A stretch of 30,790 nt of DNA from positions 1 to 30,790 of the forward strand of contig CAXEIX010000001.1 of assembly GCA_963996605.1 (NCBI GenBank), given 5' to 3'. Both the position numbers and the translations under genes were made by a program. Positions 1,349 through 3,587 of the stretch are shown here, piece by piece (position 1 is the stretch's first letter; every line of letters begins with the position of its first letter). The notes under the pieces were generated by a model. The model had not been told where the DNA came from. It made no database searches and saw only the letters and a program-made list of their open reading frames with translations. Source of the stretch: an uncultured Candidatus Poseidoniales archaeon (GTDB lineage: Archaea > Thermoplasmatota > Poseidoniia > Poseidoniales > Thalassarchaeaceae).

Positions 1349-2809
1349 ATGGAAACGAACACCGCATACGTACTGACCGCCTGCATACTAGCCGCCTTTG
1401 GATACATAGGGATCCAAGCCTCCAACGGGGAAACCGACGACGACTCCTACCTGTCGTCCAGGGGGACCCAGGGCTGGCTTGGCATCGGCCTGAGCCTATT
1501 CGCCTCCGGGATGGGGGTCTGGGTCCTCCTCGGCCCCTCGGAGGTGGCATACTACGGCGGGTTCTGGGACGTCATGGGATACGCGGTATCGTCCATGACC
1601 CCATTCCTGCTGCTCGCCTACATCGGCCCCATGATCAGGGACAGCATACCCGACGGCATCACCCTGGCGGACTACGCGAAGCAGCGCCTCGGCAGGAGGA
1701 TGCAGATCTACGTCGGCGCCATCTCCATACTCTACATGTTCACGTTCCTCTTCGCGGAGTTCACTGCGATAGGCAAGGTGATGGAGCACCTCTCCGGGAT
1801 GGACCCGCTAGCCCCGATGCTCATGGTCGGGGCCGTCACGGCCGCCTACACGGCCTACGGCGGGCTCCCCGCGTCCCTGGCGACCGACCGGGTCCAGGCG
1901 CTGGTCATCTCGGTCCTGGTCACCCTCGTCCTCCTCGTCCTTCTGGGCGGCGACCCCGGGCAGATGCTCGAAGACGCCAGGGCGTACAACACGGACGACG
2001 ACTGGTCCCTGCTGGGGAGCATGAGCTACATGGGGTCGTTCGAGTCGGGCCTTGCCCTGGTCATCGCGATCACCGCAGCAGAGATGTTCTCCCAGGGCAA
2101 CTGGCAGCGTGTCTACGCCTCCAAGGACGACGACTCCCTGAGGAAGGGCGCCCTTCTGGCAGCGGCGATGGTCTTCCCGCTGGTATTCGCGATGGGATTC
2201 CTCGGGACCGTAGCAGCGGGCCAGGGAGGGGTTGCAGACCCATCGATCGCCTTCTTCTACGTCCTGGGGGAGGCCGGCTTCCTCGTCGCCTCGGTGCTGA
2301 TCGTCCTCGTGGTCTCCCTAGTCTGCTCTAGCGCTGACACCCTGCAGAACGCCATCGTGGCCTCCTACTCGAGGGACATCTCCGATGGCGGCATGGACCT
2401 GAGGTCGTCCAGGCTGGCCACCGTGGCGATGATCCCGCTGGCGATATACCTGGCATCCGGGCCCACCATAAACGGTTTCGAGTTCAACGCATGGAGCGTG
2501 TTCGGGATCTTCCTATTCGCCGACATGCTCGCGGCCGCGACGGTGTCCCCAGTCCTCCTGACCCTATGGGGAGGGGTCTCCTCGCGCGGCGCGTTTCTGG
2601 GCTGCCTGGCAGGATTCGCATCGGTTGCGTTGTACGGCTTGGTCGAGCCTCCGACCGACTCTGCCTTCTTCATGTACATCCTGCACCCTACAGGCGGTGC
2701 CATCCCGGCCAGCGAGGGTGGCCTGACCAACCTCTGGGCCTTCCTATCGGCCATAGTAGGCTCAACGGCGGCCACGGTGCTGGGTTCATACGCTCTGCCC
2801 GACGAGTAG
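1349..2809 (+). CDS. Sodium:solute symporter (SSS) family permease, probably a thiamine or thiamine-precursor transporter (ThiV-like)
   Basis: 486 aa polytopic membrane protein with SSS motifs (SLFASGMG, ITLADYAKQRLG, YTAYGGLPASLATDRVQ, QGNWQRVYASKD, SSADT). Substrate inferred only from the upstream riboswitch. Confidence 0.85.
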   Translation: METNTAYVLTACILAAFGYIGIQASNGETDDDSYLSSRGTQGWLGIGLSLFASGMGVWVLLGPSEVAYYGGFWDVMGYAVSSMTPFLLLAYIGPMIRDSIPDGITLADYAKQRLGRRMQIYVGAISILYMFTFLFAEFTAIGKVMEHLSGMDPLAPMLMVGAVTAAYTAYGGLPASLATDRVQALVISVLVTLVLLVLLGGDPGQMLEDARAYNTDDDWSLLGSMSYMGSFESGLALVIAITAAEMFSQGNWQRVYASKDDDSLRKGALLAAAMVFPLVFAMGFLGTVAAGQGGVADPSIAFFYVLGEAGFLVASVLIVLVVSLVCSSADTLQNAIVASYSRDISDGGMDLRSSRLATVAMIPLAIYLASGPTINGFEFNAWSVFGIFLFADMLAAATVSPVLLTLWGGVSSRGAFLGCLAGFASVALYGLVEPPTDSAFFMYILHPTGGAIPASEGGLTNLWAFLSAIVGSTAATVLGSYALPDE

Positions 2810-2813
2810 GGGC

Positions 2814-3587
2814 ATGGCGACGTCGCTCCGGCCTTGGAAGCGATTCTGGGCAGGACCTTGGTCGAGAAGGGGGCGCCTCGGGGGGAGGTGGTTCTCGCTC
2901 GAGGTCTTCGTACTGGGCCTGTTGTTGGTGGCTGTCCCGTACTTCTCCACGAACAACATTGCCAGCATGTACCTCGACACAGTGTGGGACCCCGAGATCG
3001 GGATGGACAGGGAGTTCCCGGTCGTGAACTGGATGATACTGCCCTACACGCTGCTGTACCTGTTCTACCCGGCGACCCTACTCCTGTGCCCGAGTGACGA
3101 CAGGGGGCACGCGGAGCTGGCGGTCGGGATGCAGACTCTGATCATGGTCACCGCGTTCTGCTGCGCCATCTTCCTCCTGCTCCCTGCCGAGATAGACATG
3201 AGGGACCAGATCGACTGGGACTCCCTCAACGGGTGGGAGTCCGTCCTCTTCGAGTTCATACACTTCTCCGACAACCCCTGGAACGCATGGCCGAGCCTGC
3301 ACATAGTCCACTCCTACCTGCTCGCACGCCTGATGACGGTATGGGCATCGAGGAGGGCCGCGGAGTCGAGCGCCTGGAACCTCTTCCTGGTCGTGCTCTG
3401 GGTAGAGTGGGCCCTGCTCTGCATCAGCATCCTGACCACCAAGCAGCACTATCTGTTCGACCTGGTGACGGGGATAGCAGTCGCCCAGTTGGCCTGGATT
3501 TGGACTGCCCCACACCTAGACAGGATAGACGACATCGGAGCCAAAAAATTCTCAATTGAAGTAGGCTGGGAGAAGCCAAACGCATAG
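2814..3587 (+). CDS. PAP2-superfamily integral membrane phosphatase/phosphotransferase
   Basis: About 6 hydrophobic segments. Motifs NAWPSLH (PSxH) and TTKQHYLFDLVTG (HxxxD). Starts 4 nt after the symporter stop. Confidence 0.8.
   Translation: MATSLRPWKRFWAGPWSRRGRLGGRWFSLEVFVLGLLLVAVPYFSTNNIASMYLDTVWDPEIGMDREFPVVNWMILPYTLLYLFYPATLLLCPSDDRGHAELAVGMQTLIMVTAFCCAIFLLLPAEIDMRDQIDWDSLNGWESVLFEFIHFSDNPWNAWPSLHIVHSYLLARLMTVWASRRAAESSAWNLFLVVLWVEWALLCISILTTKQHYLFDLVTGIAVAQLAWIWTAPHLDRIDDIGAKKFSIEVGWEKPNA

Follow-up and report, generated by a model that had tools for sequence, protein, structure and literature searches.

The locus analyzed here raises the question of what a riboswitch-led permease gene and the phosphatase-like gene directly behind it have to do with one another. 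Both are located on contig CAXEIX010000001.1 of an uncultured Poseidoniales archaeon, and the window, i.e., the whole stretch of DNA that was analyzed, comprises 30,790 nucleotides. A first-pass annotation had read the TPP riboswitch, the SSS permease and the PAP2 enzyme as a single riboswitch-controlled unit that may scavenge thiamine phosphates. Its description of the layout was borne out, as the ORF calls and cmscan agree on a permease gene and a PAP2 gene that are 4 nt apart and positioned 3' of a TPP riboswitch. The component features are as follows:

1..1228, + strand: pruA, 3' part (glutamate-semialdehyde dehydrogenase; TIGR01236, 605 bits)
1240..1245, + strand: promoter box TTCAAC of the riboswitch-SSS transcript, of the genome-wide box type, with a predicted start at ~1269
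1272..1343, + strand: TPP aptamer core (P2, P3, P3a, P4, P5; cmscan 50.4 bits; P1 of at most 2-3 bp)
1337..1341, + strand: Shine-Dalgarno (SD) sequence GGAGG of the SSS gene, within the 3' strand of aptamer helix P4 (cmscan structure line)
1349..2809, + strand: SSS symporter of the SSSP/ThiV group, predicted importer of intact thiamine (486 aa, PF00474, E 6e-22)
2785..2790, + strand: predicted internal promoter box TTCATA, 29 nt 5' of the PAP2 start and overlapping SSS codons G479/S480
2814..3587, + strand: PAP2 gene, six-TM YnbD/Aur1-type (257 aa, PF14378 PAP2_3, E 4e-8)
within the PAP2 gene: predicted outward-facing site of R130, H163 (3300-3302), H212 (3447-3449) and D216 (3459-3461)

The pruA gene represents the left flank of a transporter slot and lies outside the thiamine unit. 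A PAP2 homologue of ~62% identity belongs to a cluster with a member named Candidatus Thalassarchaeum. In the comparisons below, the own family (f1) is accordingly taken to be Marine Group IIb, and the sister family (f3) presumably corresponds to Poseidoniaceae.

The SSS permease, which the databases label a Na+/proline symporter, was shown by BLAST to match the SSSP protein of Halomonas with 218 bits (E 2e-68) and PutP of Escherichia coli with 45 bits, and it reached only 43.9 bits against the PutP model TIGR02121, for which the cut-off is 515.5, placing it outside that family. A quick tree that took in Halomonas, Haloferax, PutP and PanF proteins grouped it with the Halomonas and Haloferax proteins and apart from PutP and PanF with 99% SH-aLRT, a value that carries a long-branch warning. 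The earlier claim that this is not a proline transporter, despite its pruA neighbour, is thereby upheld. Sequence searches of the PDB returned no match for the permease or for the PAP2 protein.

The Halomonas protein used in this comparison is identical to that of H. titanicae BH1, shares 37% identity with the archaeal permease and is preceded by its own TPP riboswitch (65 bits); the SSSP of H. titanicae BH1 is listed with a 5' riboswitch in the McRose 2014 supplement (PMC4260697), the match to the present protein being made by strain. Furthermore, a TPP motif was found 5' of the SSS homologue in 80 of 80 Halomonadaceae loci, and the Haloferax homologue is located after two tenA genes. Thiamine uptake has been demonstrated for DUR31, a fungal relative (Donovan 2018, PMC5997356; PMC12329505). 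With the SSSP/ThiV/DUR31 proteins (PMC4260697, PMC5997356) the archaeal gene has in common PF00474 and a TPP riboswitch in the 5' leader, while it differs from them in that it swaps in place with ThiBPQ and is led by a riboswitch in one family yet stands behind thiR in another. Of note, a second SSS paralog, nearer to PanF and PutP, was observed at G000:C112:724-2025.

The likely substrate was deduced from the thiamine gene content of the order. ThiE never scored above its cut-off in 41 genomes, and a search of five genomes (91-96% complete in four cases) revealed no ThiD, TenA, ThiC or Thi4; the matches obtained for Thi4 were short N-terminal FAD-binding stretches and were rejected as such. 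By gene content, the host cannot make vitamin B1. Thiamine pyrophosphokinase, on the other hand, was detected in 26 of 26 high-quality genomes (in G000 with 82.4 bits against a TIGR01378 cut-off of 76.4) and is nearly universal in the order. ThiL was never above its cut-off in 61 genomes, and weak matches of at most 50 bits, against a cut-off of 184, were not accepted as ThiL. Since thiamine could not be assembled from HMP without ThiE, the reading proposed for SAR11 ThiV does not transfer to this archaeal host, to which HMP uptake would be useless. The permease substrate is accordingly most likely intact thiamine and not HMP, judging from gene content, and the riboswitch-symporter part of the locus is very probably a thiamine importer. 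The earlier ThiV-like reading as a precursor transporter therefore stands as regards membership of the thiamine-related SSSP/ThiV group, while HMP or HMP-P as the substrate is not supported, in view of the ThiE, ThiD, TenA and ThiC results. That the permease carries proline, as suggested by its database label and by its direct coupling to pruA in the absence of a riboswitch (G003, G016, G020, G023, G077 and G139), or else HMP, is highly improbable: its scores favour SSSP over PutP, the neighbourhood argument for proline falls since thiB likewise directly follows pruA in G153, and the ThiD and ThiE enzymes that would use HMP were not found in the five and 41 genomes searched, respectively.

Comparison with related genomes revealed that SSS and ThiBPQ replace each other in one slot. 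An even draw of 41 own-family genomes contained 27 with SSS, 11 with ThiB, none with both and three with neither, and both transporter types are found in six genera of this family. In the sister family the gene order is thiR (encoding an HTH and a ThiN domain), thiB (above the TIGR01254 cut-off), permease, ATPase and PAP2, and ThiB is present in 21 of 22 genomes, the exception (G050) possessing an SSS orthologue directly behind thiR. The order riboswitch-thiBPQ-PAP2 was encountered in G117, while the same pruA gene is followed by thiB in G153 and directly by PAP2 in G029; all four combinations of regulator and transporter were found. ThiR is encoded by 22/22 sister-family and 0/36 own-family genomes and the riboswitch is present in 0/22 and 18/36, respectively, although these figures, like the SSS/ThiB counts, derive from kin genomes that are not independent and represent a pattern, not a test. 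In several own-family lineages that lack the riboswitch (L015, L017-L019, L246, L261 and L263), SSS, or thiB in the case of G153, is located right after pruA, and B1 uptake in these lineages may be constitutive or track pruA expression. A conserved palindrome, ATGCA-N3-TGCAT, was also observed just 5' of the thiR promoter box TTGAATA in the sister family (L061, L062, L066, L067, L071, L075, L078 and others) and represents a candidate ThiR operator.

The RF00059 match in the window extends from 1261 to 1360 with 50.4 bits (E 3e-9), i.e., 3.9 bits below the Rfam gathering score of 54.3. It is not a chance match, since orthologous aptamers reach up to 61.7 bits and exceed the RF00059 cut-off in eight of 61 genomes, and the conserved core CUGAGA / ACCUGAU / GCGNAGG is present. 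The promoter box of these archaea was found to be TT[CG]AA, not TTTA(A/T)A; genome-wide (G000 and a 400-kb sample of G038), it peaks at -30/-29 before start codons, with SD-like words at -13 to -9, and the former peak before ATG suggests that leaderless transcripts are common. A box of this type is located 29-33 nt 5' of the aptamer GGGG in 18 loci, and its position at 1240 in the window sets the predicted transcript start at ~1269, just 0-4 nt before P2. The best P1 helix that could be drawn comprised at most 3 bp in 19 of 21 archaeal aptamers, as in shuffled sequences, compared to 6 bp in 30 of 30 Halomonadaceae controls; that of the window aptamer is 2 bp long and does not amount to the closing helix of RF00059. 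In agreement with this, the RNAalifold consensus of the archaeal aptamer alignment contains P2-P5, with a covarying P3a, and no P1. The GGAGG sequence is invariant in 14 aptamers and starts at -12 from the ATG, inside the genome-wide SD peak, and because it sits in the 3' strand of P4, TPP binding would cover the SD directly. The aptamer thus appears to lie at the very 5' end of its transcript, to lack helix P1 and to hide the SD in P4, and the SSS ribosome-binding site appears to be the sole target of the riboswitch.

The archaeal aptamer shares with known RF00059 members the P2-P5 core with P3a and a ribosome-binding site in the aptamer 3' side. It differs from them (PMC2258182) in that it is P4, and not P1, that contains the SD, in that there is no P1 beyond chance and in that the aptamer begins 0-4 nt after the predicted start. 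The absence of P1 is a variant feature, as direct translation attenuation by TPP riboswitches was already known and euryarchaeal examples had been predicted (Barrick and Breaker 2007, PMC2258182), while our literature search, of incomplete coverage, returned no report of a TPP riboswitch from Marine Group II or Poseidoniales. A minimum-energy fold in which 1248-1260 pairs with the SD region (z -1.27) was not accepted as the switch, the stretch being neither conserved nor downstream of the predicted start; in transcripts that read through from pruA, this pyrimidine-rich segment, which can pair with 1333-1344, could suppress translation of SSS. Separately, a TPP riboswitch without archaeal promoter spacing was noted in G030 (L253:1993-4560) ahead of the genes for an ABC system that resembles ThiXYZ and whose binding protein is SsuA-like, on a contig that may be bacterial and wrongly binned.

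The PAP2 protein matches PF14378 with 33.8 bits (cut-off 27), and the profile of its family matches the corresponding domain of E. coli YnbD with 93 bits. Its predicted model (pLDDT 94.5) exhibits six membrane helices and is closest in fold to SMSr (Z 15.3, rmsd 4.3, 206 aligned residues) and Aur1 (Z 12.6), followed by PgpB (11.8) and G6PC1 (11.4), while Foldseek returned no match at E <=0.001. The PSLH (160-163) and HYLFD (212-216) motifs are present, and P160, S161, H163 and H212 are invariant in 37 homologues. The motifs had been described as intact, a description that holds for PSLH and HxxxD but not for the classical signature: the K-x6-RP pattern of C1 retains R130 (34/37) while position 123 is Leu, Phe, Ala or Met instead of Lys, C2 reads PSLH and not PSGH, and in C3 S205 is followed by Ile, Thr or Val and not Arg, with H212 and D216 kept. 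The missing C1 Lys is not decisive for activity, since the equivalent K97 is dispensable in PgpB, whereas loss of the C3 Arg reduces the PGP activity of PgpB to 0.3% (PMC7413402).

By its sequence features, the PAP2 protein is of the YnbD/Aur1 type and is not a classical PgpB/LPP-type phosphomonoesterase. It has in common with the YnbD/Aur1/IPC synthase/SMS branch (PF14378) the PSLH and HxxxD motifs, the absence of the C1 Lys and C3 Arg, and the SMSr/Aur1-like fold. It differs from YnbD in being a stand-alone protein of 257 aa without the dual-specificity phosphatase domain, and in lying beside thiamine transporters, while YnbD sits in a lipid-synthesis operon. E. coli YnbD failed to complement mutants in C55-PP or PGP phosphatases (PMC7413402). 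Since the N-terminus of the model is rich in Lys and Arg and loop 124-161 is acidic, R130, H163, H212 and D216 would be positioned on the outer face; this charge bias is consistent with the outward-facing site that had been assumed previously. Genome G000 also encodes a second, longer and distant PAP2-like protein (C178:1418-2732, L258; 36.5 bits).

The PAP2 gene appears to have its own leaderless promoter. Of 123 four-fold degenerate SSS sites, only the two in the codons that carry TTCATA end in A or T in 12/12 linked genomes; the unlinked SSS of G029 has lost the box. Furthermore, similar boxes occur at -29 to -31 of PAP2 genes in unrelated contexts (G139, G117, G203, G196, G057 and the g3 genomes), for which the chance expectation is ~1% per context, although in several lineages no box was seen 5' of PAP2. 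If functional, this promoter would render PAP2 expression largely independent of the riboswitch.

The synteny of the pair, which had been put forward as a check, proved to be frequent but not strict. PAP2 is located 3' of a thiamine transporter in 21/22 sister-family genomes, in 2/2 genomes of family f2 and in 27/38 of the own-family draw, in which it is clearly apart in 6/38 and of indeterminate linkage in 5/38. At least eight genomes have PAP2 apart from the transporter (G029, G046, G065, G144, G198, G206, G212 and G221); G058 was dismissed as a further unlinked case owing to a thiQ-like 3' end directly 5' of its PAP2 gene. PAP2 was not found in G077, a 96% complete genome that possesses SSS. 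Opposite-strand genes separate transporter and PAP2 in G204 and G214, and PAP2 remains when two intervening genes are lost. The background is high: when G038 was compared with G000, 19 of 30 (63%) tight co-oriented gene pairs proved to be retained, so that one inherited adjacency says little, and PAP2 would likewise stay where it is if cassettes were swapped between fixed flanks. In all, 12 contigs were examined for context, five of which were too short (one of these with an ABC ATPase upstream); none of six non-Poseidoniales PAP2 homologues on longer contigs had thiamine neighbours, and neither did that of one same-class genome outside the order. The ThiR-like palindrome was not seen 5' of relocated PAP2 genes, and a literature search, again of incomplete coverage, yielded no link between PAP2 and thiamine. 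The notion of one riboswitch-controlled unit is weakened by these data, as the switch appears to act at the SSS ribosome-binding site, PAP2 has its own box and the two genes are unlinked in several genera.

Two irregular arrangements of the pair may be recorded here. A gene pair encoding a LIMLP_15305-like protein of 182 aa and a protein of 405 aa with a C-terminal zinc ribbon (L066:9876-11638) is often located between transporter and PAP2; it is inverted in G204 and G214 and absent from many genomes. In G025 (L022:2937-3857), SSS is followed by only the first PAP2 codons and then by AT-rich sequence with a tRNA-like stretch, which may reflect a chimeric contig or a deletion.

The explanation that we favour, by a narrow balance of judgement, is that of two neighbouring, separately started genes, i.e., a TPP-repressed thiamine importer and a PAP2 enzyme that is made largely from its own transcript and acts on a lipid headgroup. 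According to this model, a short-leader mRNA would start at ~1269, nearly at the aptamer; at high cellular concentrations, TPP would bind the P1-less aptamer and lock P4 over GGAGG, and SSS translation would stop. SSS would import intact thiamine with Na+, and thiamine pyrophosphokinase would convert it to TPP. PAP2, a near-universal single-copy gene of the order, would be produced largely from its own leaderless transcript and would most likely act at the outer face on the phospho-headgroup of a membrane lipid, like its Aur1/SMS-type relatives; that its substrate is a lipid is considered somewhat more probable than the contrary. The gene would mark the right edge of the SSS/ThiBPQ exchange slot, so that its position would be inherited and be no proof of a thiamine role. 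Several observations sit uneasily with this model, in particular the adjacency of PAP2 to a thiamine transporter in the great majority of sister-family and in most own-family genomes, the kinase-only salvage, which implies that TMP needs some phosphatase, and the fact that the failed complementation by YnbD leaves the lipid substrate of this type not established. In addition, transcripts that read through from the riboswitch promoter may contribute to PAP2 expression.

Pho3 of yeast is a histidine acid phosphatase that is secreted and repressed by thiamine. The Pho3-Thi7-Thi80 system of yeast and PHO3-DUR31-THI80 of mildew (PMC12329505) would share their logic with the archaeal locus if scavenging holds, namely an outer phosphatase, an importer of free thiamine and a pyrophosphokinase. 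In such a scheme, the outward PAP2 would dephosphorylate extracellular TPP and TMP for the importer and the kinase, its own promoter making it merely constitutive. This alternative is unlikely. In its favour, PAP2 has remained next to the transporter in three families, with two regulators and two types of transporter; PAP2 stays while intervening genes come and go; its site would face outward; and membrane PAP2 enzymes that act on soluble phosphates exist, such as G6PC1. Furthermore, salvage proceeds by thiamine pyrophosphokinase only, as a Pho3-like module presupposes (TIGR01378 in G000, ThiL sought in 61 genomes), and TMP is useless without a phosphatase since ThiL was never over its cut-off; the want of an established lipid substrate for YnbD also counts in its favour. 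Set against this are the own promoter box in spite of adjacency in most genomes, the unlinked genomes, the background synteny, the homologues without thiamine context, and the absence of the C3 Arg on which PgpB depends. ThiBPQ, moreover, is listed as a carrier of B1, TMP and TDP (PMC10881298), which would lessen the need for such an enzyme. The archaeal candidate also differs from Pho3 itself: it is a membrane PAP2 unrelated to that enzyme, and its own promoter shows no sign of control by thiamine. Of the earlier proposal that the phosphatase acts on TMP, TPP or HMP-P, the outward site and the frequent adjacency speak for the thiamine-phosphate part, which is nonetheless doubtful, while HMP-P is not supported and the idea of shared control is weakened. 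The joint reading, in which a Marine Group II YnbD/Aur1-type PAP2 represents an outward thiamine-phosphate phosphatase that feeds an intact-thiamine ThiV under a functional P1-less TPP riboswitch, is decidedly unlikely.

It is improbable that PAP2 instead represents a broad ectophosphatase for organic phosphorus, functionally allied to the phosphate genes on its other side: PAP2 and a PiT-family gene converge in most genomes of the own family, and PAP2 stays by pit when parted from the transporter (G065, G144 and G029) and is followed by phoU-pstSCAB in the window, but no phosphate gene adjoins it in the sister family, and its orientation to pit varies, the two genes not being co-oriented.

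What is novel here is that an aptamer apparently lacking P1 is combined with a ThiV for which whole thiamine must be the cargo; the parts are otherwise known. Marine B1 surveys score thiV as a transporter of the pyrimidine precursor (PMC10881298); in the archaea analyzed here it replaces ThiBPQ in HMP-incapable genomes, and such scoring would therefore misclassify an abundant group. As of 2021, the fluoride riboswitch was the only one shown to work in archaea (PMC8241225), and an 80-nt, apparently P1-less TPP aptamer that would hide its own SD offers a cheap and direct test of archaeal riboswitch control and of the importance of P1. The PAP2 link provides a testable, albeit rather doubtful, substrate for the uncharacterised YnbD type; a thiamine-phosphate phosphatase, if true, would give the YnbD/Aur1-type subfamily its first substrate.

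As regards the right-hand side of the locus, phoU-pstSCAB lies within window positions 3588-20846, 3' of PAP2 and ahead of a conserved gene at 20843-22444, while most relatives possess a convergent PiT-family gene after PAP2 in its place.
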